Shown here piece by piece: positions 22,297 through 37,393 of a DNA stretch of 64,000 nucleotides. The stretch's first letter is position 1, and each line of letters opens with the position of its first letter. Location of the stretch: positions 323,493 through 387,492 of the forward strand of contig NZ_PZOX01000005.1 of NCBI RefSeq assembly GCF_003044305.1, written 5' to 3'. The notes under the pieces were generated by a model that saw only the letters and a program-made list of their open reading frames with translations, was not told the DNA's origin and searched no databases. The stretch comes from Vitiosangium sp. GDMCC 1.1324. GTDB taxonomy: Bacteria; Myxococcota; Myxococcia; Myxococcales; Myxococcaceae. The translations under genes were made by a program, and so were the position numbers.

Positions 22297-24318
22297 TCAG
22301 CGAGGCGCGAGCTTGGGGGCGGATGCCTTCTCGTTCCGCTCGATGCCCGGTGCAACGGGCAGGGTGAAGAAGAACGTGGTCCCCCGCCCGAGGGTGCTCT
22401 CCGCCCAGATGCGTCCCCCATGGGCCTCGACGATGCCCTTGGCGATGTAGAGTCCCAGGCCCGCGCCCCGCCGGTCCGTGGGCCTCTCCTGCCAGAAGCG
22501 GTCGAAGAGCCGGGAGAGGTGCATCGGCGCGATTCCCTTGCCCGTATCCGAGACCGAGAAGCACACCTCGCTGTCGCGGCGCTCGGCGCCAATACGGATG
22601 TGGCCACCAGGGGGCGTGAACTTCACGGCGTTGCCGAGGAGGTTCGAGAAGACCTGCAGAATCCTGCCCCGGTCGGCCATGACCAGCGGAAGCGCCTCGG
22701 CCAGTTCGGTCCGCAGCTCGAGGGATGCTGCGGACGCCGCCGCGGTGAACAACTGGACTGCCCCGGCCACCAGCTCCCCCGGCGCCACGCATTCACGCTC
22801 GAGGTGAAGCCCTTGCTTCTCGATTCGCGCCACGTCCAGCAGGTCCTCGATGAGTCGATTCGCCTGGTGGATGTGCCGTTCAATGGTCTCCGCCGCCTTG
22901 TGGACGGTTCTTCCCGGGTCGTCTTGCGGCACATTACGCCGGAGCGCCGCCGCGGCGAGCCCGACCGCCTGGAGCGGATTGCGAAGGTCATGCGCGACGA
23001 TACTGAGCACCTCGTCCCTCGCGGCAACGGCCTGCTGTGCGGCCCGATAGAGGCGCGCGTTGTCGACCGCCAGGGCCGCACGGCGGGCCAACTCCTCGCC
23101 CAGCCGAAGGTCCTCCGGGTCGTAGTGACGGCGCGAGTCCGTGGAAACGACGAGGAGGACTCCCACCAGGTGCCCATGGGCCAGGAGCGGAAGTCCCATG
23201 AAGGAAGTGGGATGGAGCTGGCGGAGCAGCTCGAGGTGCTCGGGCCCCTGGGCAATGGACTGGAGGACTTCCGCGGAGACGTCGGACACCAGTATCGGCT
23301 GTTTCGTCTCGAAGATCTGACAGTAGAGAGAGCCCCTGTTTCGGTCCAGCGGCACCTGCTCGAGCGCGGCTGCGAGCTGCACCCTGGCGGGCTCCCGGTG
23401 AACGACGCGGAGCCGATGGAGCTGCCCCCCCTCCTCCACGATGTCGATGATGCAGGCGTCCGCCAGGAAGAGAACCGCGAGCTGGGCAATGCGGGTGAGG
23501 ACCTCCTGGTAGTCCAGGGTCGCGGCGAGGACGCTTCCGACCTCCACCAGGAATCGCTGGTCGCGCTCGACGCGGGCGCGCTCGGTGATGTCGCGCAGCA
23601 CGACGTTGAAGAGCACCTTCCCCCCGACTTTCAGCTTCGAGATGGCGGCCTCCGCGGGGAACTCCTGGCCGCTCTTGCGCAGGCCGAAGATGGCGGGGCG
23701 ATGCTCGCCCATGTATCGCGCTTTCACGGGCCCGGCCGCGAACTCACGCATGTGCTGCCGGTGAATCTCCCGGAATCGCTCTGGCAGCAGGATGTCGAGC
23801 GGCCTCCCGAGGATCTCGTCACTCCGCCAACCGAAGATGCTCTCGGCGCCTTCGTTGTAGATGACGATGTGTTGCTCCTCATCGACCGAGATGACGGCGT
23901 CCAGGGCGATGGAGACAATCCCCGCGAACTTCGCCTCTGACTCGCGAAGCGCCTCCTCCACGAGCTTGGCGCCCGTCCGGTCAACGCCCACCAGATAGAC
24001 GAACTCCGGCGTTCCGTCGGGGCGCCTCGACACCTGCGCCGACCAGGCAATCCACCTGCGCTCCCCCGCCTTCGTGAACACGACGGATTCCTGAGGGGGA
24101 GACTTGCCTTCCAGGAGCTGGGTGAGAAGGCGCCTGGCGGACTCGGCCCTGTCTGAAGCGGGATTGAACTCTCCGACCTTCCGGCCCCGGACCTCCTCGA
24201 AGTCATACCCGAGCAACTCCGAGCACGCCCGGTTCCACAGGAGGACCCGCCCCTCCCGGTCGAGGACGACCACGAGGGGCTCCCTCATCTCCAGGAGCCT
24301 CACATCGAAATCCATCAT
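22297..24318 (-). CDS. cytoplasmic PAS-PAS-GAF sensor histidine kinase
   Basis: Start at MMDFD after GGGAGAGG. H-box (IVAHDLRNPL) and HATPase_c motifs (SDTGKGIAPMHLSRLFDRF, GAGLGLYIAKG). Two PAS-like segments plus a GAF-like middle region. Confidence 0.8.
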   Translation of the reverse strand: MMDFDVRLLEMREPLVVVLDREGRVLLWNRACSELLGYDFEEVRGRKVGEFNPASDRAESARRLLTQLLEGKSPPQESVVFTKAGERRWIAWSAQVSRRPDGTPEFVYLVGVDRTGAKLVEEALRESEAKFAGIVSIALDAVISVDEEQHIVIYNEGAESIFGWRSDEILGRPLDILLPERFREIHRQHMREFAAGPVKARYMGEHRPAIFGLRKSGQEFPAEAAISKLKVGGKVLFNVVLRDITERARVERDQRFLVEVGSVLAATLDYQEVLTRIAQLAVLFLADACIIDIVEEGGQLHRLRVVHREPARVQLAAALEQVPLDRNRGSLYCQIFETKQPILVSDVSAEVLQSIAQGPEHLELLRQLHPTSFMGLPLLAHGHLVGVLLVVSTDSRRHYDPEDLRLGEELARRAALAVDNARLYRAAQQAVAARDEVLSIVAHDLRNPLQAVGLAAAALRRNVPQDDPGRTVHKAAETIERHIHQANRLIEDLLDVARIEKQGLHLERECVAPGELVAGAVQLFTAAASAASLELRTELAEALPLVMADRGRILQVFSNLLGNAVKFTPPGGHIRIGAERRDSEVCFSVSDTGKGIAPMHLSRLFDRFWQERPTDRRGAGLGLYIAKGIVEAHGGRIWAESTLGRGTTFFFTLPVAPGIERNEKASAPKLAPR

Positions 24319-24590
24319 GGGGCGGACCTCTCCCGGGCCGCACCGACTGCACGGGCTCAACGCTCGCCGCTGTCCTCAAGGGTGAGCATCCCGGCCGGGC
24401 CTTGCCATGCCCGGCGTCCCCTTCGGCCAGGCGAGCCCCCAGCCGGATGTCTTCAAGACGCACATGGCAAGAAGCCCATCAGCCAGGCGAGCGGGGAGGA
24501 GCGGGCGAAGCCCCGAACCGAGACCCATGCATGCACCGGAGGGCAGCCGGGCGCTTCGCGGACTGGAGGACAAGACCCGCTCCGCGCAGC

Positions 24591-26889: not shown

Positions 26890-28770
26890 ATGAGCCAGCG
26901 GGGCACAACCACGGACAGACGCTCCTCCTTCATTCCGTTCCTGGCCTCGATGCGGGGTTACCGCCCGAGCTGGCTGAAGCGAGACCTGGTGGGAGCGCTC
27001 ACCATCACGGCCCTCCTCATCCCCGAGGGCATGGCGTACGCCCAGCTCGCCGGCGCACCACCCCAGGCGGCCTTCTATGCGTGCCCGGTGGCCCTGGTGC
27101 TCTACGCCCTGCTGGGCAGCTCGCGTCAGCTCGTGGTGGCCGTCTCCGCCACGGTGGCCGTCCTCTCCGCCGCCACCATCAGCGCGCTGGCGCCTTCGGG
27201 CTCGGCCCACTTCCTCGCCCTCACCGCTGGCCTGGCCATGCTGGCGGGCCTCATCTCCCTGCTCGCGGGCGTGCTGCGGCTCGGGCGCATCGCCCAGTTC
27301 TTCTCCCCTTCCGTCCTCACCGGCTTCGTCTTCGGACTGGCGCTCGTCATCGCCATCAAGCAGGTGCCCAAGCTCTTCGGATTGAAGGGCGCCGAGGGCG
27401 GATTCTTCGAGCGGCTGTGGTTCGTTCTCACCCACCTCCCGCGGACCCACCTGCCCACGCTCCTGGTGGGCGCGAGCTGCCTGGTGCTGCTGGTGGTCCT
27501 CGAGCGCATCTCGGAGCGCCTCCCCGCGGCCCTGGTGGTCCTGGTGCTGGCCATCCTCGCCTCCCATCTGCTCGGCCTCCAGGCGCGGGGGGTGGAGGTG
27601 GTGGGGAACATCCCTTCCGGGCTCGTGGCGCCACGGCTGCCGGGCATGAAATGGAGTGACGTGCTGACCCTGCTGCCGGGAGCGTGCGGCATCGCGCTGG
27701 TGGCCTTCGCGGAGGCCATCGGCCCGGCACGCATGCTGGGGGCCCGGCATGGCTACCCGGTGAATCCCAATCAGGAGTTGATCGGCCTGGGCTGCGCCAA
27801 CCTGGGCGCCGGTCTCTTCCAGGGCTTCTCCGTCGGCTGCAGCCTGTCCAAGTCAGCGGCCAATGATCAGGCGGGAGCCCACAGCCAGCTCTCCTCCCTG
27901 GTGGCGGCCGGCTTCACGCTGCTGGTGGCACTCTTCTTCACGCCCCTCTTCCGGGCCCTGCCCGAGGCCACCCTGGGCGCCATCGTGGTGGTGGCCGTGT
28001 CGGGGATGATGGAGGTGGGCGAGCTGCGGCGGCTGTCCCGGCTGCGCCGTGTCGACTTCCTCGTGTCGATGACCGCCCTGCTGGGCGTGCTCGTCCTCGA
28101 CGTGCTGCCGGGCCTGCTCCTCGCGGTGGGCCTCTCCCTGTTCCTCACCGTCTATCGCGCCAGCCTCCCCCGGCTGAGCGAGCTGGGGCGGGCCGCGGGC
28201 ACCCTGGACTTCGTCGACATGCGGCACGACCCCTCGGCGCGTTCCCTGCCTGGGCTGAAGGTCCTCCGCCCCAACGAAGGCATCTTCTTCGCCAACGCCG
28301 AGTCCCTCCGCGAGGAGATCCTGGAACACGTGCGGCGCGGCCCCCTCTCGGTCCAGGCCGTGCTGTTGGATCTGGAGGTGACGACGGATCTGGACGTGCC
28401 CGGAGCCGACATGCTGGCCGGCCTTCACGAGGAGCTGGAGAGCCGGGGGGTGACGCTGATGCTGGCGCGGGCCATCGCTCCCACGCAGGAGATGATGGAG
28501 CGCACCGGCGTGCTGGAGAAGGTGGGCCGAGACCACCTCTACCCGCATGTGCTGGGCGGGGTGGTGGACTATCTGGCCCGGCACGCACCCCACGCTCGGG
28601 ACGAGCGGGCGTTCTTCCACGACGGCCTGCACCGGCTGGGCACCCTGGCGGAGGAGGTCGAAGCCTCCATGCCGGACGAGGAGCGCGAACAACTGGAGCG
28701 GATGCGGCGGGAGCTCCGCCAGGCCGAGTCCGCGCTGGAAGAGCCACCCCACGGAGGCAGCGGACCATGA
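26890..28770 (+). CDS. SulP-family sulfate/inorganic-anion permease with a C-terminal STAS domain
   Basis: TM core (ALTITALLIPEGMAYAQLAG..., SulP signature region). STAS-like segment (LDLEVTTDLDVPGADMLAGLHEEL). An alternative ATG lies at 26851. Upstream ORF extension 26365.. is R/P-rich junk. Confidence 0.8.
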   Translation: MSQRGTTTDRRSSFIPFLASMRGYRPSWLKRDLVGALTITALLIPEGMAYAQLAGAPPQAAFYACPVALVLYALLGSSRQLVVAVSATVAVLSAATISALAPSGSAHFLALTAGLAMLAGLISLLAGVLRLGRIAQFFSPSVLTGFVFGLALVIAIKQVPKLFGLKGAEGGFFERLWFVLTHLPRTHLPTLLVGASCLVLLVVLERISERLPAALVVLVLAILASHLLGLQARGVEVVGNIPSGLVAPRLPGMKWSDVLTLLPGACGIALVAFAEAIGPARMLGARHGYPVNPNQELIGLGCANLGAGLFQGFSVGCSLSKSAANDQAGAHSQLSSLVAAGFTLLVALFFTPLFRALPEATLGAIVVVAVSGMMEVGELRRLSRLRRVDFLVSMTALLGVLVLDVLPGLLLAVGLSLFLTVYRASLPRLSELGRAAGTLDFVDMRHDPSARSLPGLKVLRPNEGIFFANAESLREEILEHVRRGPLSVQAVLLDLEVTTDLDVPGADMLAGLHEELESRGVTLMLARAIAPTQEMMERTGVLEKVGRDHLYPHVLGGVVDYLARHAPHARDERAFFHDGLHRLGTLAEEVEASMPDEEREQLERMRRELRQAESALEEPPHGGSGP

Positions 28771-29810
28771 CGGCATTCCCAACACTTCGCACCGCTCGCG
28801 CGGTGGCCCTGCCACTGCTGGTCCTGACAGCGCTCGCCGCGAGCACCCCCACCATCGCCCAGGCTCCAACGGCGCAGGTGGATCCACTTCCCTCCTGGAA
28901 CGAGGGAGCGCCGAGGAAGGCCATTCTCGACTTCGTCAAACGTGTCACCACGCCGGGCAGCCCGGACTTCATCCCGGTCGAGGAGCGCATCGCCACCTTC
29001 GACAACGATGGCACGCTCTGGCCCGAGCAGCCCGTCATCCAGGGCGCCTTCGCGCTCATGCAACTCCAGAAGCGCGTCGCGAAGGATCCCTCGCTCAAGC
29101 AGAAGCCCGCGGTCAAGGCCGCCCTCGACGGAGACCTCGAGTACCTCACCCGGGCCGGTGAGAAAGCGGTGCTGGAACTGCTGGCGATCACCTCCGCCAA
29201 CATGACCAACGAGCAATTCGACCAGGAGGTCCGCGACTTCTTCCAGACGGCGAAGCACCCGAAGCTCGGCGTGCCCTACACGCAGCTCGCCTACAAACCC
29301 ATGGTGGAGCTGCTGGAGTACCTCCGCGCCAACGGCTTCCGTACGTACCTCTGCTCGGGGGGTGGCATCGACTTCATGCGGGTCGTCTCCCAGCGGATGT
29401 ATGGGATTCCACCGGAGCAGGTGATCGGCAGCTCCCTGAAGAAGGAGTTCAAGACCCAGAACGGCAAGTCCGAGCTCTGGAGGAAGCCCGAGCCCGGCGC
29501 GGTCAACGACAAGGAGACCAAGCCGGTGAACATCGATCTGCACATCGGGAAGCGTCCGGTGCTCGCGGCCGGCAACGAGCGCAGCGGTGGAGACATCGCG
29601 ATGCTCGAATACTCCCAGGGCCGAGAGGGGCCCTCGCTCCAACTCCTCGTCAACCACGACGACGGTCAGCGGGAGTTCGCCTACCAGGAGAAGGACAACG
29701 CCTCGCTCAACGCCGCCCGGACACACGGCTGGACGGTCGTGAGCATCAAGAACGACTGGAAGACTGTCTTCGCCCCTCCGCCCCCAGGCGCGAGTGGCCA
29801 GAAGCCGTGA
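28767..29810 (+). CDS. secreted HAD-superfamily hydrolase (phosphatase-like)
   Basis: ATGA overlap with the SulP stop. Signal peptide. HAD motif I (FDNDGTLW). Motif IV-like (GNERSGGDIAML). Confidence 0.7.
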   Translation: MTAFPTLRTARAVALPLLVLTALAASTPTIAQAPTAQVDPLPSWNEGAPRKAILDFVKRVTTPGSPDFIPVEERIATFDNDGTLWPEQPVIQGAFALMQLQKRVAKDPSLKQKPAVKAALDGDLEYLTRAGEKAVLELLAITSANMTNEQFDQEVRDFFQTAKHPKLGVPYTQLAYKPMVELLEYLRANGFRTYLCSGGGIDFMRVVSQRMYGIPPEQVIGSSLKKEFKTQNGKSELWRKPEPGAVNDKETKPVNIDLHIGKRPVLAAGNERSGGDIAMLEYSQGREGPSLQLLVNHDDGQREFAYQEKDNASLNAARTHGWTVVSIKNDWKTVFAPPPPGASGQKP

Positions 29811-29949
29811 AGCGTGGATCCCGGCTCCGGGACCCCGCCCCTCCGGGCTGTACGAGCAGCGGGGCTGGCGAGAGTCCCTCCCCGGAGCATGCACATCGTT
29901 CCTGCCAGACCTACCCGGAACCGGGCAACCACGGAGAGGGAGAAACACC

Positions 29950-31425
29950 ATGGCCAGAGCTGCGAAGCCCCCCAACATCCTCGTCATCTTCGGAGACGAC
30001 ATCGGCTACTGGAACGTCAGCGCCTACAACCAGGGAATGCTGGGCTACGAAACGCCCCACATCGACCGTCTGGCGAAGGAAGGAGCGATCTTCACCAATT
30101 ACTACGGGCAGCAGAGCTGTACCGCCGGCCGCGCGGCCTTCATCACCGGCCAGTGCCCCTTCCGCACGGGCCTGACGAAGGTCGGCATGCCGGGAGCCAA
30201 GGTGGGCCTGAGCGACGAGGACCCGACGATCGCCGAGATGCTCAAGCCCCTGGGCTACCAGACGGCCCAGTTCGGCAAGAACCACCTCGGGGACCGGGAC
30301 GAATACCTGCCCACGAACCACGGCTTCGACGAGTTCTTCGGCAACCTGTACCACCTCAACGCGGAAGAGGAGCCCGAGAACCCGGACTACCCGAAGGATC
30401 CCCAGTTCCGGAAGCGCTTCGGTCCGCGCGGCGTCATCCGCTCGTACGCGGAAGGCCGCATCGAGGACACCGGGCCCCTCACGAAGAAGCGCATGGAGAC
30501 GGTCGATGAGGAGTTCCTCGCCGCGGCCCTCGACTACCTCGAGCGGGTGGCGGACTCCGACAAGCCTTTCTTCATGTGGTTCAACACCACGCGCATGCAC
30601 ATCCACACGCACCTGAAGCCGGAGTCCCAGGGCAAGACGGGAATCGGGCTCTATCCCGACGGCATGGTCGAGCACGACGGACACATCGGCCAGCTCCTGG
30701 ACAAGCTCGACGAGCTGGAGCTGAGGGAGAACACCATCGTCATCTACACCACGGACAACGGCGCCATGGTCAACATGTGGCCGGACGCCGGAGCGACTCC
30801 CTTCCGCGGCGAGAAGGACACCAACTGGGAGGGCGCGTTCCGCGTGCCGTGCCTCATCCGCTGGCCCGAGGTCATCAAGCCGGGCACCCGCATCAACGAG
30901 CTCGTCTCGTCCGAAGACTGGCTGCCCACGCTGGTGTCCGCCGCGGGCGACCCGGACGTCAAGGACAAGCTCCTCAAGGGCTACGAAGCCAATGACAAGA
31001 CGTTCAAGGTGCACCTGGACGGCTATGATCAGACCGGGCTGCTCGCGGGGCGGGAACCCTCCCGGCGCAAGGAGTTCTTCTACTTCGGCGATGATGGCGA
31101 GTTGCTCGCGGTGCGCCATGGGCGCCTCAAGGTGGTCTTCGCCGAACAGAAGGCCGAGGGCATCGACGTCTGGTCGACGCCCTTCGTGATGCGCCGGGCG
31201 CCGCTCCTCTTCGACCTGGGAGCGGACCCGTTCGAGCGGGGAGAGGACGGAATCGGCTACCACTCCTGGCTGATCGACCGGGCCTTCATGTTCCTCCCGG
31301 CTCAGCAGGTGGTGGCCCGGTTCCTGGAGAGCTTCAAGGAGTTCCCGCCGCGTCAGAAGGCGGCGAGCTTCACCATCGACCAGGTGCTGGAGAAGCTGGA
31401 GAACGCGCCGCCCCCGGACCATTGA
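29950..31425 (+). CDS. Cys-type sulfatase (arylsulfatase family) with CTAGR formylglycine motif, no signal peptide
   Basis: GGAGAGGGAGA ribosome-binding site. PNILVIFGDDIGYWN...QQSCTAGRAAFITG...GKNHLGD. 491 aa. Alanine sits at the Pro position of the CxPxR motif. Confidence 0.85.
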   Translation: MARAAKPPNILVIFGDDIGYWNVSAYNQGMLGYETPHIDRLAKEGAIFTNYYGQQSCTAGRAAFITGQCPFRTGLTKVGMPGAKVGLSDEDPTIAEMLKPLGYQTAQFGKNHLGDRDEYLPTNHGFDEFFGNLYHLNAEEEPENPDYPKDPQFRKRFGPRGVIRSYAEGRIEDTGPLTKKRMETVDEEFLAAALDYLERVADSDKPFFMWFNTTRMHIHTHLKPESQGKTGIGLYPDGMVEHDGHIGQLLDKLDELELRENTIVIYTTDNGAMVNMWPDAGATPFRGEKDTNWEGAFRVPCLIRWPEVIKPGTRINELVSSEDWLPTLVSAAGDPDVKDKLLKGYEANDKTFKVHLDGYDQTGLLAGREPSRRKEFFYFGDDGELLAVRHGRLKVVFAEQKAEGIDVWSTPFVMRRAPLLFDLGADPFERGEDGIGYHSWLIDRAFMFLPAQQVVARFLESFKEFPPRQKAASFTIDQVLEKLENAPPPDH

Positions 31426-31526
31426 CGGTGACGAGCGGCCCGCCCCCTGTGAGCCATTCCAGGGGGCGGGTCCAGCTCCGGTTCATCTTCTCGCTGCTCT
31501 TCCCGACAAAGAAATAGAGGTTTCCA

Positions 31527-31931
31527 ATGTCAGATGTGCTCACTCAGATGTGGCGGGAGATCGTCGAACGCCCCGATGGGCCGATGGCATTCCGCTTCTA
31601 CTTTCAACCGCTGATGGCGCTGCTGTTCGCCGTGCGCGACGGCATCAAGGACGCGCACGAGGGACGGCCCGCCTACTTCTGGGCGCTCTTCACGGACAAG
31701 CCGCACCGTCGCGAGTTGCTGCGCTCTGGCTGGAGCTCGGTCGGCAAGATCTTCATCCTCGCGGTGGTGCTCGACACGGTCTATCAACTCCTCGTGTTCA
31801 AGGGGCTACGGCCACTCCAGGGACTGATCGTGGCCGTGCTCCTGGCGCTCGTGCCGTACGTGCTGCTCCGAGGCCCGGTGAACCGGATCGCCCGCGGCCT
31901 CCTCCACCGCCGTGCCAGCCGGCAAGGATGA
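31527..31931 (+). CDS. small membrane protein (134 aa)
   Basis: AGAGG ribosome-binding site. Two hydrophobic helices (FQPLMALLFAV, IFILAVVLDTVYQLLVF..LIVAVLLALVPYVLL). Confidence 0.5.
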   Translation: MSDVLTQMWREIVERPDGPMAFRFYFQPLMALLFAVRDGIKDAHEGRPAYFWALFTDKPHRRELLRSGWSSVGKIFILAVVLDTVYQLLVFKGLRPLQGLIVAVLLALVPYVLLRGPVNRIARGLLHRRASRQG

Positions 31932-32146
31932 GCGGTGTCGGGGTGGTGATAGGTCCACCCTCGAACAAGGCGCGGACCCCGGGCCGTACTGCACATCCCG
32001 CTCTCATGCCAGGCAGGGAGCCGAGGGGATACACGCTCCCGTCCGGAGCCGGATGCGCCGTCCTGGCACCAACCCTCCTCCCGCCCTCGCGGTCTGATGG
32101 GAGTACCGCTCACCCGATACATACCCTCGACGCCAGGAGGAGCGAG

Positions 32147-32863
32147 ATGCGATTCATTTCCATGAGGACCGTGGGGCTGCTGGTGGCGTTCGCAGGCGCC
32201 TGCCCCGCCCTGGCGGCCGAACCCGACATTCCCGCGAGCTTCGTCACCGAGAACGAGCAGGATTCGCTCGTACCGCACGTGGGCTTCAACATCGGAGCCG
32301 GCGTGAGCTTCCCGCTCGCCGACTCGGGCAAGCGCTTCGAGACGGGCGGCGCCTTCCAGCTCGGAGTGACGTACAACTTCAACCGGCTTCTGGGCGTGCA
32401 GGCCGAGTACCTCTACAGCGGCTACAACATCCAGTCCAACGTGCTGGACTCGACAGGCGTCAACGGCTACCACTCCATGCAGTACGGGGACCTCAACGCC
32501 GTCTTCAACGTGATCCCCGCCCGCCCCTTCGGCATCTACGTGCTGGGCGGGCCCGGCATCTACCATCGGCGGGTGGAAATCACCGAGTTCGCGGGGGTGG
32601 CCGCGGTGCCGTACTGCGACCCCTGGCTGTACATCTGCTACACCACGCCCGTGTCGGTCGAGTCCGTGCTCGGCGCGCGGAGCAGGACGGACTTCGGGCT
32701 CAACGCGGGCGTCGGCATCAGCCTGAGGCTCTTCGGAGGCCCCATGCGCCTCTACGCGGAAGCCCGCTACCACTACATCTTCAGCGGCGACATCGATACG
32801 GCGGCGGGCCCGAAGAAAGCGAATGGTCAGTACATTCCCCTCGTGTTCGGGTTGCGCCTCTGA
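32147..32863 (+). CDS. outer-membrane beta-barrel protein (OMP_b-brl/OmpA-like porin family)
   Basis: AGGAGGAG ribosome-binding site. Signal peptide (MRFISMRTVGLLVAFAGACPALAA). Beta-strand pattern. The terminal residue is Leu (ends ...PLVFGLRL) rather than the Phe/Trp typical of OMPs, which lowers confidence in the beta-barrel call. The ORF-track upstream extension was rejected. Confidence 0.65.
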   Translation: MRFISMRTVGLLVAFAGACPALAAEPDIPASFVTENEQDSLVPHVGFNIGAGVSFPLADSGKRFETGGAFQLGVTYNFNRLLGVQAEYLYSGYNIQSNVLDSTGVNGYHSMQYGDLNAVFNVIPARPFGIYVLGGPGIYHRRVEITEFAGVAAVPYCDPWLYICYTTPVSVESVLGARSRTDFGLNAGVGISLRLFGGPMRLYAEARYHYIFSGDIDTAAGPKKANGQYIPLVFGLRL

Positions 32864-32918
32864 GGCCCGCGTCAGGCGCGGCCGCCCGTGTCTCATGACG
32901 GGCGGCCTCATCTCGCCC

Positions 32919-34628
32919 TTAGACGTGAGCCTGCTGGAAGCGGGCGATGGCCTGCTCGACCTGATCGGCGAAGTGATGGAGCACCTCGCCGATGTTCGTG
33001 GTCGCGCCCTCCTCCTCTTCCTCGCGCTGCGCCTTCATCTTCGCTGACTTCTCCTTCATCTTCTCGCGCACCCTGTCCTTGAGGGGCCCGATGCTGAGAC
33101 TGCCGGGCGCCTGGCTCGGTGGATAGTCGATGAGGCTCTCGGCGAACTGCCGGACGAGCACCTGCCCTGGCACGAAGAGGAACATCCGTTCGCCATACCA
33201 GCTGGTGTACTGCCCCGAGTGCGTGGCGTATTCGAACGGGTCGGAGCGCAGGTTGATGATGTAGGGCCATGCGGGGTTGAAGCGCTTGCCGCTGAACCAC
33301 ATGTCCGGCCCTTCGCCGTCCTGATAGGAGAAGATGAGCTTCCAGTCGTCGTAGCGGACGGCGGCGAGGTTGCCGCTGTCGAGCACGTAGATGTACTCAT
33401 GACGCTTGCCGGGCCCCTGGCCCGCGAGCAGCTCGCGCTGGTCGTACCCGTCCAGGTACACGCGGAACTTCTTCTGGCCCACCTGGAAGCCCGTCTTGCA
33501 CCGCTCGACCAGATCCTCGGGGCCTCCCGCGGCCGCCACGAGGGTCGGCATCCAGTCCTCGTGGGAGAAGATGTCATTGATGATGGTGCCCGGCTGGATG
33601 ATGCCCGGCCAGCGCATCACACAGGGCACACGGACACCGCCCTCCCAGGTGGAGCCCTTCTCGCCCCGGAACGGCGCGTTGCCACCGTCGGGCCAGCCCA
33701 TCTTCTCCACGCCATTGTCGGTGGAGAAGACGACGAGGGTGTTGTCCGCGATGCCCAGCTCCTCGAGCTTGGCGAGCAGGGCGCCCACGATGTCGTCGAG
33801 CTGGGTCATGGCGTCTGCGTAGAGGCCCTTGCCCGTCTTGTCCTTGTATTTGTCGCTGAGGTACGTCCACACGTGGGTGCGCGTGGTGTTGTGCCAGACG
33901 AAGAAGGGCTTGCCCTCCTTCGCCGCCCGCTCGATGAACTTCAGCGAGGAGTCCAAGAACTCGTCGTCCACCGTCTCCATGCGCTTCCGCGTGAGGGGCC
34001 CGGTGTCCTCGATGCGCTGCTTGCCCACGCGACCCCAGCGCGGATCCTCGGTCGGATCGTCCCGGTCCGTCGCCCAGCAGTGGAGCACGCCCCGCGGCCC
34101 GAACCGCTCCTTGAACTTCGGATCCTTCGGGTAGTCGGGGCACTCCGGCTCGTTCTCGGCGTTGAGGTGGTAGAGATTGCCGTGGAATTCATCAAAGCCG
34201 TGCACGGTGGGCAGATAGGGATTGGAGTCGCCCAGGTGGTTCTTGCCGAACTGGCCACACACGTAACCCAGGGGCTTGAGCATCTCGGCGATGGTGGGGT
34301 CCGAGTCCTGCAGTCCGTACTTGGCGCCGGGCATGCCGATGGTGGTGAGCCCCGTGCGCAGCGGGTTCATGCCGGTGATGAAGGCGGCGCGGCCCGCCGT
34401 GCAGCTCTGCTGCCCGTAGCAGTCGGTGAGCAGCGCCCCCTCCTTCGCGATGCGGTCGATGTTCGGGGTGCGGTAGCCCATCATGCCCTGGTTGTAGGCG
34501 CTGATGTTCCAGTACCCGATGTCATCTCCCCAGATGACGAGGATGTTGGGCTGCCGCTGCTCGCCCTTCTTCTCGTGGCCATTGCCCGTTTTCGAGTGGC
34601 CGTTGCCCGTCTTCTTGCCCTGCGGCAT
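32919..34628 (-). CDS. Cys-type sulfatase paralog (CTAGR motif) with an N-terminal KTGNGH tandem repeat and a charged C-terminal tail
   Basis: Strong GAGGAAGGAG ribosome-binding site. About 75% identical to the 29950..31425 product over the catalytic core. Opens MPQGKKTGNGHSKTGNGHEKKGEQ. C-terminal tail ...KMKEKSAKMKAQREEEEEG... Confidence 0.85.
   Translation of the reverse strand: MPQGKKTGNGHSKTGNGHEKKGEQRQPNILVIWGDDIGYWNISAYNQGMMGYRTPNIDRIAKEGALLTDCYGQQSCTAGRAAFITGMNPLRTGLTTIGMPGAKYGLQDSDPTIAEMLKPLGYVCGQFGKNHLGDSNPYLPTVHGFDEFHGNLYHLNAENEPECPDYPKDPKFKERFGPRGVLHCWATDRDDPTEDPRWGRVGKQRIEDTGPLTRKRMETVDDEFLDSSLKFIERAAKEGKPFFVWHNTTRTHVWTYLSDKYKDKTGKGLYADAMTQLDDIVGALLAKLEELGIADNTLVVFSTDNGVEKMGWPDGGNAPFRGEKGSTWEGGVRVPCVMRWPGIIQPGTIINDIFSHEDWMPTLVAAAGGPEDLVERCKTGFQVGQKKFRVYLDGYDQRELLAGQGPGKRHEYIYVLDSGNLAAVRYDDWKLIFSYQDGEGPDMWFSGKRFNPAWPYIINLRSDPFEYATHSGQYTSWYGERMFLFVPGQVLVRQFAESLIDYPPSQAPGSLSIGPLKDRVREKMKEKSAKMKAQREEEEEGATTNIGEVLHHFADQVEQAIARFQQAHV
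34575..34613 (-). repeat. in-frame 18-nt tandem repeat encoding KTGNGH x2 at the sulfatase N-terminus
   Basis: DNA GTGGCCATTGCCCGTTTT / GAGTGGCCGTTGCCCGTCTT. Confidence 0.6.
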
Positions 34629-34920
34629 GTGCAGACTCCTTCCTCATGGGGACGACCGTCTCCGGTTACTTCGCGCCGGGCACTGGTGCCCGGGGATGTG
34701 TCCTCCGGAACAATCCGTGCGCATCCCGGCCGACACAGGGCAACGAGGTGGCGAGCGGCGGCATGGCGATGCCCGTGTCCTGTCCTCCGGGGAGGGACGG
34801 GCGGCGGCTCATGAACACGTGCCCCGGCCTGGAGTCCCGGGTGGCCCCGCTCCGGACGCTCCCCAGCTTGCGCCTGGGTAGGGAGCGCGAGTGCTCCACC
34901 CGGAAGAAGGGAGCGCACCC

Positions 34921-35931
34921 ATGAGCACGGAAGACATTGGAGTGTCAGCGAGCCTGGAGACCCGGCCCCAGGAGCAACCCGCTCCGTGCAAGGCTCCGTT
35001 CCCGGACATGGTGTGGATTCCCGGCGGCACCTATTGGATGGGCTCGGATCACCACTACCCCGAGGAGAGGCCCGCCCATCAGGTGACGGTGTCTGGCTTC
35101 TGGATGGACATCCATCTGGTGACGAACTCGCGCTTCGCCTGCTTCGTGGAGGCCACCGGCTACATCACCGTGGCCGAGCGCCCACTGGACGCCAAGGATT
35201 ATCCGGGAGCGGACCCCGCAATGCTCGTCCCCGGCTCGCTCGTCTTCCGCAAGCCCGAGCAGCGCGTCAGCCTCGACGACTTCTCGCAGTGGTGGGCCTA
35301 TGTGCCGGGCACCTGCTGGAGGCACCCCGAGGGCCCCGGCAGCACCTGGGAGGGACGCGAGCAGCACCCGGCCGTCCACGTGGCCTTCGAGGACGTGGAG
35401 GCCTATGCCACCTGGGCCGGCAAGGAGCTGCCCACCGAGGCCGAGTGGGAGCGCGCCGCGCGCGGAGGCCTGGACCGCAAGAGCTACGCCTGGGGAGACC
35501 TGCTCTCGCCCGAGGGCCGGATGATGGCCAACACCTGGCAGGGACAGTTCCCCATGCAGAACCTGCTCGAGGACGGCTACGAGGGCACATCCCCCGTGGG
35601 CACCTTCCCCGCCAACGGCTACGGCCTCTTCGACATGATCGGCAACGTCTGGGAATGGACCACGGACTGGTACCAGGACCGGCACCAGGGCAACCGGGGC
35701 AAGGCGTGCTGCATCCCGGTGAACCCGCACGGGCCGGCCAGTCCGGAAGGAACCCAGGACCCTCTGACGCCCCAGGTGATGATTCCGCGCCGCGTGCTCA
35801 AGGGCGGCAGCCACCTGTGCGCGCCCAACTACTGCCAGCGCTACCGCCCCGCCGCGCGCTCCCCGCAAGCGGTGGACAGCGGAGCCGGTCATCTCGGCTT
35901 CCGCTGCATCGTCCGTCCTCCCTTCCAGTGA
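34921..35931 (+). CDS. formylglycine-generating enzyme (FGE/SUMF1-type sulfatase-modifying factor)
   Basis: MVWIPGGTYWMGSD...GNVWEWT...RVLKGGSHLCAPNYCQRYRPAAR is the classic FGE signature. No signal peptide. An alternative GTG lies at 34891. Confidence 0.9.
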   Translation: MSTEDIGVSASLETRPQEQPAPCKAPFPDMVWIPGGTYWMGSDHHYPEERPAHQVTVSGFWMDIHLVTNSRFACFVEATGYITVAERPLDAKDYPGADPAMLVPGSLVFRKPEQRVSLDDFSQWWAYVPGTCWRHPEGPGSTWEGREQHPAVHVAFEDVEAYATWAGKELPTEAEWERAARGGLDRKSYAWGDLLSPEGRMMANTWQGQFPMQNLLEDGYEGTSPVGTFPANGYGLFDMIGNVWEWTTDWYQDRHQGNRGKACCIPVNPHGPASPEGTQDPLTPQVMIPRRVLKGGSHLCAPNYCQRYRPAARSPQAVDSGAGHLGFRCIVRPPFQ

Positions 35932-35950
35932 GCCGCACGGAGGAAACCCC

Positions 35951-36721
35951 TCAGGAGGGGGTATCCACCGGGCGCCGGGTGGCCAGCCGCTCGGCCCGCT
36001 CGCTCTCCAGGGCCCGCTCGGCACCGGTGGCGGTGATGGCCGCCGAGGGGCGATGCACCGTGCGGTACACGGCCGCCGCCGTGGCCCCGCCCAGCAGGGG
36101 CGCCACGATGAACACCCAGAGCTGGCTCAACGCCCAGCCTCCCACGAACAGCGCCGGCCCCAGGCTGCGCGCTGGATTGACGGAGGTGTTGGTGATGGGA
36201 ATGCCCACCAGGTGCACGAGCGTCAGCACCAGGCCGATCGCCACTCCGGCGAACCCCACGGGAGCGCGGGCGTCGGTGGCGCCCAGCACCGTCAGCACCA
36301 GGAAGAAGGTGAGGACCACCTCGGCCAGGAAGGCCGCGCCAATGCTGTACCCTTCCGGCGAGTGGGCCCCGAAACCGTTGGCCGCCAGCCCCTGGGAGGC
36401 CGCCGAGTAGCCCTCCGGCGCGCCCTTGGCCAGCAGCAGCACCACGCCCGCGCCCACGATGCCCCCCACGCACTGGGCCACCACGTACCCCAGGGCGTAG
36501 CGGCGCTCCATCTTCCCGCTGAGGAGCAGGCCGAGCGTCACCGCGGGATTCAGGTGACAGCCCGAGATGGGACCGATGGCGTACACCATCGCGAGGAGCG
36601 CTAGCCCGAAGGCGAAGGCCACCCCGAGGAAGCCAATCCGCGCCCCCGCGAACACGGCGGCGCCCACGCCACCGACCACCAGGGCGAACGTGCCGACGAA
36701 CTCCGCCCCGTAGCGCCGCAT
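35951..36721 (-). CDS. aqpZ: aquaporin (MIP family, AqpZ-like) with an extended C-terminal tail
   Basis: Two NPA boxes (HLNPAVT, NTSVNPAR). Start at MRRYGAEFVGTF. Confidence 0.85.
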   Translation of the reverse strand: MRRYGAEFVGTFALVVGGVGAAVFAGARIGFLGVAFAFGLALLAMVYAIGPISGCHLNPAVTLGLLLSGKMERRYALGYVVAQCVGGIVGAGVVLLLAKGAPEGYSAASQGLAANGFGAHSPEGYSIGAAFLAEVVLTFFLVLTVLGATDARAPVGFAGVAIGLVLTLVHLVGIPITNTSVNPARSLGPALFVGGWALSQLWVFIVAPLLGGATAAAVYRTVHRPSAAITATGAERALESERAERLATRRPVDTPS

Positions 36722-37048
36722 CGCCTCCGTTCCACCGGAGGGAGCTGCAGACCTCACCTCGACCTTGTCCATGGTCAGCCTCACCAGGCGGGAGCCCGGA
36801 CTCATATCCGGTTCCCACCAAACGGGTCTCACGGGTCACGCTGTGCACGGTGCTTCACGAAGCAATCACCCAGGCAACGCACTCCCCCGCGCCTGCTGGG
36901 TCCGCGGATGGGGTACTCCCAGCGGGGCGGTCTTCCGCTCGGCGCCCACCCTGAGCCCCGCCGCCGGCCGCACTCCGACGATCTGCGCGTAGGCGAGCCC
37001 CTGGGGAATGAGCATCGCGCTGATGAATTCCTTCGGGGCTGTCAGTCC

Positions 37049-37393
37049 TCACATGGGCGTCGGGACGTACACGAGGTTGGGGCCGTCGTAGCTCGGCCGG
37101 TAATAGGTGGTCCCGCACTTCTGGTACACGACGCCCGCGTTGACGACCTCGACGCAGCCAGCGGGCAGCGTGGACACCACCGCTGCCGTCCCTACCGCGG
37201 CCGCTGTTCCCACTGCGGCGGCGGTCCCCACGGCCGCTGCCGTGGCTGCTCCCGCATAGGCCACTCGCCGGGTGGTGCGGCGGGCCACCCCCGCATAGCT
37301 CATGGGCGTCGCGGGCATGCCAATCACGGCCAGCGCCTCGCCCGCGACGAGCACGAGCGCAAGCGAGAGGGCGGAAAGGTGAGCACGTTTCAT
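37049..37393 (-). CDS. small secreted protein with (AAAVGT)x3 repeats and a C-terminal two-Cys module
   Basis: AAGGAGG ribosome-binding site. Start codon overlaps the upstream stop (ATGA). Signal peptide (MKRAHLSALSLALVLVAGEALA). Contains CVEVVNAGVVYQKC. Confidence 0.6.
   Translation of the reverse strand: MKRAHLSALSLALVLVAGEALAVIGMPATPMSYAGVARRTTRRVAYAGAATAAAVGTAAAVGTAAAVGTAAVVSTLPAGCVEVVNAGVVYQKCGTTYYRPSYDGPNLVYVPTPM
37172..37250 (-). repeat. 18-nt tandem repeats encoding AAAVGT x3
   Basis: GCCGCTGCCGTCCCTACCGCGGCCGCTGTTCCCACTGCGGCGGCGGTCCCCACGGCC... Confidence 0.55.

Follow-up and report, generated by a model that had tools for sequence, protein, structure and literature searches.

Organization of the sulfatase locus

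Within a 64-kb stretch of the genome of Vitiosangium sp. GDMCC 1.1324 (64,000 nucleotides of contig NZ_PZOX01000005.1, GC content ~68%, the whole of which we call the window), eight genes are grouped around two formylglycine-dependent sulfatases, Sulf1 and Sulf2, that lie in opposite orientation. An earlier note, made from the letters of this DNA, had described the region as a sulfate-ester locus, and its eight-gene layout is borne out by the map of open reading frames (ORFs), by Pfam and by NCBIfam, and its sulfate-ester or sulfur reading is supported too (Table 1). A gene run of SulP permease, HAD hydrolase and Sulf1 is headed by SulP, and the stop/start overlap between the first two genes, the ATGA at 28767-28770 that the note had pointed out, can be read directly in the sequence. 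Further, the SulP protein scored 410.6 bits against TIGR00815 (NCBIfam cut-off 380.45) and carries both a Sulfate_transp and a STAS domain, which identify it as a SulP transporter. Sulf2 is 100% identical to an annotated arylsulfatase of Vitiosangium sp. GDMCC 1.1324, and Sulf1 shows 89% identity with arylsulfatases from Archangium violaceum and A. lansingense. NCBIfam gave no equivalog-level name to Sulf1, Sulf2, the HAD hydrolase, the outer-membrane protein (OMP) or the small membrane protein, and neither the small membrane protein nor the two ORFs that precede SulP had a Pfam match. A scan of 26.3-37.2 kb for promoters and terminators found nothing exceeding shuffled expectation.

Table 1. 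Genes and features of the sulfatase locus; positions are counted from the first letter of the window.
Feature	Position	Strand	Evidence
SulP-family anion permease, C-terminal STAS domain	26890..28770	+	PF00916 1.9e-97, PF01740 (STAS); TIGR00815
HAD-superfamily hydrolase, predicted exported, Sec signal peptide, DNDGT motif I	28767..29810	+	PF12710; PDB 4ovy
Sulfatase 1 (Sulf1), 491 aa, S1 formylglycine-dependent, without signal peptide	29950..31425	+	PF00884 1e-55
Sulf1 formylglycine motif, codons TGT ACC GCC GGC CGC (C-T-A-G-R)	30118..30132	+	direct reading
Small membrane protein, 134 aa, without Pfam family	31527..31931	+	kept in A. violaceum
Outer-membrane beta-barrel protein (OMP), signal peptide	32144..32863	+	PF13505 2.2e-13
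Sulfatase 2 (Sulf2), 569 aa, second subclade with 16-aa insertion, without signal peptide	32919..34628	-	PF00884 1.6e-49
Sulf2 formylglycine motif, codons TGC ACG GCG GGC CGC (C-T-A-G-R)	34389..34403	-	reverse complement read
Sulf2 N-terminal KTGNGH/GNGH repeat, predicted disordered	34575..34610	-	ortholog comparison; pLDDT
Sulf2 C-terminal extension, ~45-60 aa: charged linker, then conserved amphipathic helix	32922..33101	-	ortholog comparison
Aerobic formylglycine-generating enzyme (FGE), without signal peptide, divergent from Sulf2	34921..35931	+	PF03781 7.8e-82
Aquaporin Z (AqpZ, MIP)	35951..36721	-	NF003838
71-bp remnant of second SulP gene, 5' part	36953..37023		94% identity to A. violaceum L001 19833-19903

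Active site and the CTAGR motif

The assignment of both enzymes to the sulfatases is clear, with PF00884 scores of 189.6 bits for Sulf1 and 169.3 bits for Sulf2 against a gathering cut-off of 25, and with the extended sulfatase signature SCTAGRAAFITG, which includes the core motif, found in each. Specifically, the Sulf1 residues D16, D17, C57, R61, K110, H112, H217, D269, N270 and K289 are invariant across the clade alignment and align with the active site of ARSA (D29, D30, R73, K123, H125, H229, D281, N282, K302). The best match in the PDB is PsFucS1 (7AJ0; E 9e-57), with ARSA and GALNS also among the matches.

Both formylglycine motifs had been read as C-T-A-G-R, with Ala in the place of Pro, and the Ala codons (GCC in Sulf1, GCG in Sulf2) confirm that reading. 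That the motif is a noteworthy deviation had been implied, and this view did not survive comparison: CTAGR is carried by 231 of the 239 closest homologs (120/120 of the best Sulf1 homologs and 111/119 of the best Sulf2 homologs), and the core formylglycine motif has already been defined as CX[P/A]XR (PMC2459300). A pattern search of genomes, at one genome per species, found the clade in at least 600 loci, distributed over Planctomycetota, Verrucomicrobiota, Bacteroidota, Acidobacteriota, Gemmatimonadota, Synergistota, Myxococcota and Alpha-, Beta- and Gammaproteobacteria (including Vibrio). Within the best 80 of these loci, from which the counts of genes neighbouring clade sulfatases given below are also drawn, 95 sulfatase ORFs contain CTAGR. 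The Ala-for-Pro motif is thus, to judge from these alignments, the norm of a huge sulfatase clade and not a local oddity. It matters little, given that Ala is the rule in the clade, that the core definition allows it and that bacterial FGEs are reported to convert it.

Absence of export signals

The earlier note had found no export signal on either sulfatase, and we agree. The conserved PNILVI strand, the first beta-strand of the fold, starts at residue 8 of Sulf1 and, after a purely hydrophilic leader, at residue 27 of Sulf2, so neither N-terminus could accommodate a Sec or Tat signal. Most clade members do carry Sec or Tat signals, and outside Myxococcota few are without them, while ~40 myxobacterial orthologs of the two paralogs all have short hydrophilic N-termini (0 with a hydrophobic N-region); because of this difference, the loss of export is evidently a lineage-specific trait of Myxococcota. 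Lacking signal peptides, Sulf1 and Sulf2 are therefore expected to fold in the cytoplasm. This location is unsurprising in itself, since in bacteria a Cys-type sulfatase located in the cytoplasm is the classical situation, as in AtsA of P. aeruginosa, and maturation of such an enzyme by FGE is the textbook bacterial arrangement.

One could suppose instead that the sulfatases are really exported, either along a non-classical pathway or because a start codon has been called wrongly, and that they work beside the HAD hydrolase in the periplasm, as their relatives would. The signals on most clade members, the signal peptide of the HAD partner and the presence of an OMP gene within the locus would all suit such an arrangement. 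A mis-called start is difficult to reconcile, however, with the position of the first strand, with the in-frame upstream extension of Sulf1, which runs back into the end of the HAD gene and is hydrophilic, with no hydrophobic stretch, or with the ribosome-binding sites, a Shine-Dalgarno-like GGAGAGGGAG before the ATG of Sulf1 and a plausible site before that of Sulf2 too. Taken with the same short N-termini in the ~40 orthologs, these features make export of Sulf1 and Sulf2 doubtful, and we give it a low probability.

Maturation of the sulfatases

The gene divergent from Sulf2 encodes an FGE that matches human and bacterial FGE structures at E ~1e-73 (~250 bits) and PF03781 at 275 bits. Both catalytic, copper-binding Cys are kept, with GGSHLCAPNYCQRYR aligning with GGSYMCHRSYCYRYR of the solved FGEs. 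An FGE homolog lies within 10 kb of a clade sulfatase in 17 of the 80 loci, mostly directly adjacent; these homologs are 48-75% identical, and one of the 17 loci holds a partial match only. The clade sulfatases with an adjacent FGE mostly have Tat-type signals, at least nine of them in all (for example, RRDLLL and RRDMLLGG; loci L017, L024, L029, L031, L034, L047, L066 and L067), which fits a route in which these enzymes would fold and mature in the cytoplasm before export in the folded state.

The competing candidate for this role is anSME, a radical-SAM maturase, which could be encoded elsewhere in the genome, leaving the FGE to serve other sulfatases of the CXPXR type. CXAXR-type sulfatases were indeed assigned to anSME by Carlson et al. 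(2008), and the radical-SAM enzyme AtsB of M. mazei recognises and converts CTAGR, which has been used as an aldehyde tag (review, PMC8068374). Further, anSME-like radical-SAM ORFs (with the signature HVMAKP.G..CN.DC.YCF) lie by clade sulfatases in three of the 80 loci, two from Vibrio and one from Synergistaceae (L033 16501-17880, L052 11447-12796 and L086 6181-7476). Against this candidate, CTAGR is also listed as a tag for bacterial aerobic FGEs (MtFGE/scFGE), the human FGE targeting the Pro-containing CTPSR (review, PMC12054377), and among the 80 loci those with an FGE neighbour outnumber those with an anSME neighbour about sixfold (17 versus 3). Within the 64-kb window there is no anSME-like ORF, the sole CxxxCxxC match, at ~56.9 kb, being without the anSME N-terminal signature. 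Myxobacteria are aerobes, and an O2-dependent FGE is the maturase to be expected in them.

Because of the difference between 17 and three loci and the absence of an anSME-like ORF from the window, the adjacent FGE is the best-supported maturase of Sulf1 and Sulf2. Adjacency, comparative linkage, the two catalytic Cys and the reported peptide biochemistry of CTAGR conversion together make it the most plausible one, as the earlier note had proposed, and maturation by a distant anSME appears quite unlikely. At the level of the clade, the same two counts are natural-history evidence for the use of both maturation systems on CTAGR sulfatases in vivo.

An exported HAD hydrolase as habitual neighbour

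The HAD hydrolase encoded between SulP and Sulf1 matches PDB entry 4OVY over its full length (E 1.2e-82). This entry is a structural-genomics HAD-domain hydrolase from Planctomyces limnophilus, deposited without an assigned function. HAD motifs I-IV are conserved across 29 homologs in the form of FDNDGTLW, GGG, the GKP-equivalent Lys252 and GN..S.GD; in motif IV the window protein has a two-residue insertion relative to 4OVY (GNERSGGD versus GN--SDGD). A clear Sec signal peptide, unremarked in the earlier note, precedes the domain, and nearly all full-length homologs carry signal peptides as well. The enzyme should therefore be exported and work outside the cytoplasm.

A homolog of this HAD hydrolase lies within 10 kb of a clade sulfatase in 32 of the 80 loci, across phyla, most often immediately downstream and on the same strand. 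In the reverse test, which was seeded from HAD homologs in metagenome contigs and gave another 80 loci (L089-L168), a sulfatase homolog was present in 46, and in 16 of the 23 loci with at least 1.5 kb of flank on both sides. Where at least 1.7 kb was available upstream, a same-strand sulfatase ended no more than 600 bp away in 19 of 37 cases, and six-frame scans of the HAD-seeded loci gave 19 CTAGR and three CTPGR motifs. The association between the 4OVY-type HAD and the CTAGR sulfatase clade is reciprocal and extends across phyla. Among the papers searched on 4OVY and on HAD-arylsulfatase clusters, we found none on the pairing; searches of the same collection on CXAXR in SulfAtlas work and on where Cys-type and Ser-type sulfatases are located gave nothing of use either. 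The linkage provides a functional lead both for an orphan structure and for a sulfatase clade that has almost no characterised members.

Two further readings bear on the pairing. First, the CTAGR sulfatases and the exported 4OVY-type HAD could form a conserved two-enzyme module, present in about ten phyla and dedicated to one substrate class, either a substrate with both phosphate and sulfate esters or a phospho/sulfo pair on the same alcohol. In Myxococcota, such a module would be split across the inner membrane, with the HAD outside, the sulfatases, one of them with its lineage-specific GNGH leader and helical tail, made cytoplasmic next to FGE, and SulP recruited to import the sulfated intermediate. 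We consider the proposal speculative and improbable. Second, the enzymes that we call sulfatases could be members of the alkaline-phosphatase superfamily that act primarily on phosphate or phosphonate monoesters, and the linkage of a HAD-type phosphatase to them would then be explained. Promiscuity is well known in that superfamily, there are weak matches to PehA and Phosphodiest, and the DxDxT motif of the HAD partner is intact. Nevertheless, the PehA match reaches 43 bits against a 900-bit cut-off, the best matches by far are to sulfatases (PF00884; PsFucS1, ARSA and GALNS), and the locus includes SulP and FGE, so that a primary phosphatase function seems very unlikely.

A further protein of ~780 aa, which has numerous haem-binding motifs (CxxCH) and a C-terminal half rich in TPRs, is encoded next to a clade sulfatase in 15 of the 80 loci (L033 11613-13967, L035, L041, L045 6791-9130, L077 and 10 more), several of them from Vibrio.

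Paralogy, inversion and synteny

The two sulfatases had been described as about 75% identical. We measured 56% identity between the proteins and 70.5% between the genes across 1462 aligned columns; the first 324 nt, at 81%, are the sole part that high, and the aligned inverted arms range over 72-81%. The 16-aa insertion of Sulf2 recurs in the homologs P0146, P0167 and P0204 and is typical of a separate subclade, to which rhizobial plasmid enzymes belong, and Sulf1 groups with the subclade that is without the insertion. By these sequence relationships, Sulf1 and Sulf2 are old paralogs that represent two subclades of one very large clade of S1 sulfatases. We rejected a recent duplication on the 56% protein identity together with an insertion that is common to a separate subclade.

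The ends of Sulf2 set it apart further, and both the tandem KTGNGH N-terminus and the acidic/basic C-tail that the earlier note had listed are present. Repeats of the GNGH type, in variable number, occur in most of the 23 Sulf2-type orthologs, with degenerate NG-rich leaders in the most distant ones, and residues 1-23 have an AlphaFold confidence (predicted local distance difference test, pLDDT) below 50 and are predicted to be disordered. The C-terminal extension is kept only among Sulf2-type orthologs, and AlphaFold predicts, at low confidence, two helices within it. When the C-terminal 60 residues were compared by phmmer with a set of 1.84 billion representatives, one fragment ortholog and no other true match came back, two further matches, to TPR-repeat proteins, being at chance level. 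We considered whether the tail could be a shared targeting peptide and rejected this, as the search returned no relatives beyond the Sulf2 orthogroup.

It had also been suggested that the inverted paralogs could serve as an inversion substrate, that is, as recombination arms flipping the 1.5-kb segment between them (31426-32918). Their inverted placement 1.5 kb apart would allow this, and the area is prone to rearrangement, with a kinase gene, Sulf2 and a second SulP gene moved or lost among related genomes. However, since the two genes are 70.5% identical and the longest exact run common to both is 27 nt, they are poor recombination substrates, and they come from two separate old subclades. 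Across Vitiosangium, two strains of A. violaceum and A. lansingense, the genes for Sulf1, FGE, Sulf2, MIP and the OMP keep one and the same relative orientation; what differs among the four genomes is the gene content between those genes and the place of Sulf2, which has been relocated, so that the record is one of translocations and deletions with no flip. We therefore regard inversion between the paralogs as extremely improbable. Nor does the segment resemble a known type of invertible segment bounded by inverted repeats, as the arms are not near-identical and a single orientation was found in the four genomes.

Specifically, both A. violaceum strains have the order SulP-HAD-Sulf1-...-histidine kinase-...-OMP-FGE-MIP-SulP2-DUF2254-Sulf2, and A. 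lansingense resembles the window in that FGE and Sulf2 lie side by side and diverge, its Sulf1 being ~10 kb away. The second SulP gene of A. violaceum (586 aa; L001 18261-20021) is otherwise missing from the window, likewise DUF2254 and ThrE, and the 71-bp remnant is likely the scar of its deletion. A gene for a PAS-PAS-GAF histidine kinase lies at 22297-24360 (minus strand) of the window and, in A. violaceum, in the same orientation between the small membrane protein and OMP; from this comparison, its move appears to be a translocation without inversion.

The remaining neighbours can be described briefly. AqpZ scored 287 bits against NF003838 (cut-off 256), and its open frame runs on to 36832. 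A MIP gene adjoins FGE in 4/4 Archangiaceae genomes but lies near a clade sulfatase in 2/80 loci, and AqpZ is probably an incidental neighbour. The OMP gene adjoins FGE in A. violaceum. For the small membrane protein, a single distant homolog was found (L086 4356-4691; 112 aa aligned at 47% identity), on a Synergistaceae contig where it adjoins HAD, anSME and sulfatase genes. At 37049-37393 (minus strand), a secreted-looking ORF of 114 aa, which contains AAAVGT in tandem and weakly matches DUF6515, adjoins the gene for a DUF2092 periplasmic protein.

Interpretation of the locus

We read these genes as an ordinary sulfatase-FGE locus for sulfur acquisition, the Vitiosangium/Archangium version of a common bacterial module, and put the probability of this reading at roughly 70%. 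In support of it, Archangium keeps both the order SulP-HAD-Sulf1 and the FGE/MIP neighbourhood. In the scheme that we propose, Sulf1 and Sulf2 would fold in the cytoplasm, where the signal-less FGE of the copper/O2 type would produce formylglycine by oxidation of Cys57 in Sulf1 and Cys76 in Sulf2. The active sulfatases, to go by their conserved catalytic residues, would then cleave an organic sulfate ester after its import, setting free sulfate that can be assimilated, and transport of sulfate, or of a small sulfated anion, through the inner membrane may fall to SulP. The exported HAD, as a habitual neighbour of the clade, probably has, outside the cytoplasm, the same substrate or a related one, and AqpZ, OMP and the small membrane protein would be lineage-specific neighbours.

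Several observations weigh against this reading. First, there are the published assignment of CXAXR-type sulfatases to anSME and the three loci with anSME-like neighbours, both described above. Second, the M. xanthus ortholog of Sulf2 has unrelated genes around it and no FGE among them. Third, SulP is found near a clade sulfatase in one of the 80 loci, a linkage confined to the Archangium and Vitiosangium genomes examined. Finally, a cytoplasmic sulfatase and a periplasmic HAD make an awkward split, when most clade members and the HAD are exported.

Comparison with known systems

PsFucS1, of SulfAtlas subfamily S1_13 (PMC8484680), has the same Pfam domain, the full set of catalytic residues and the C-terminal subdomain. 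As the best solved match, it gives an indirect hint that S1_13 could be the subfamily of the window sulfatases. Its motif, C-T-S-S-R, is likewise without Pro, where Sulf1 and Sulf2 have CTAGR instead. PsFucS1 is a secreted marine enzyme that acts on fucoidan oligosaccharides, whereas Sulf1 and Sulf2 belong to a soil myxobacterium and have no signal peptide. With respect to cellular location, the closer parallel is AtsA of P. aeruginosa, reportedly described by Kertesz in 2000 as a cytoplasmic Cys-type arylsulfatase used in sulfur scavenging: a signal-less Cys-type sulfatase, presumably cytoplasmic, linked to sulfur-acquisition genes. Its motif, however, is C-T-P-T-R, its linked genes encode an ABC transporter (atsRBC) as opposed to the SulP, HAD and FGE found here, and its structures (1hdh/4cxk) are distant matches (E ~1e-17 to 1e-18 across the N-terminal 150 residues).

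As for maturation, the CXAXR sulfatases of anSME systems (Clostridium perfringens; AtsB of M. mazei) have the same Ala core, and CTAGR is the very sequence used for AtsB. Those systems rely on a radical-SAM maturase, whereas the window has a linked O2-dependent FGE and none of the radical-SAM type. With the aerobic FGEs of M. tuberculosis, S. coelicolor and T. curvata, and with human SUMF1, the window FGE has PF03781 and both catalytic Cys in common. The reported targets of the human enzyme are Pro-containing sequences, unlike the CTAGR of the window sulfatases; the window FGE adjoins its presumed substrates, the native CTAGR sulfatases on which it would act.

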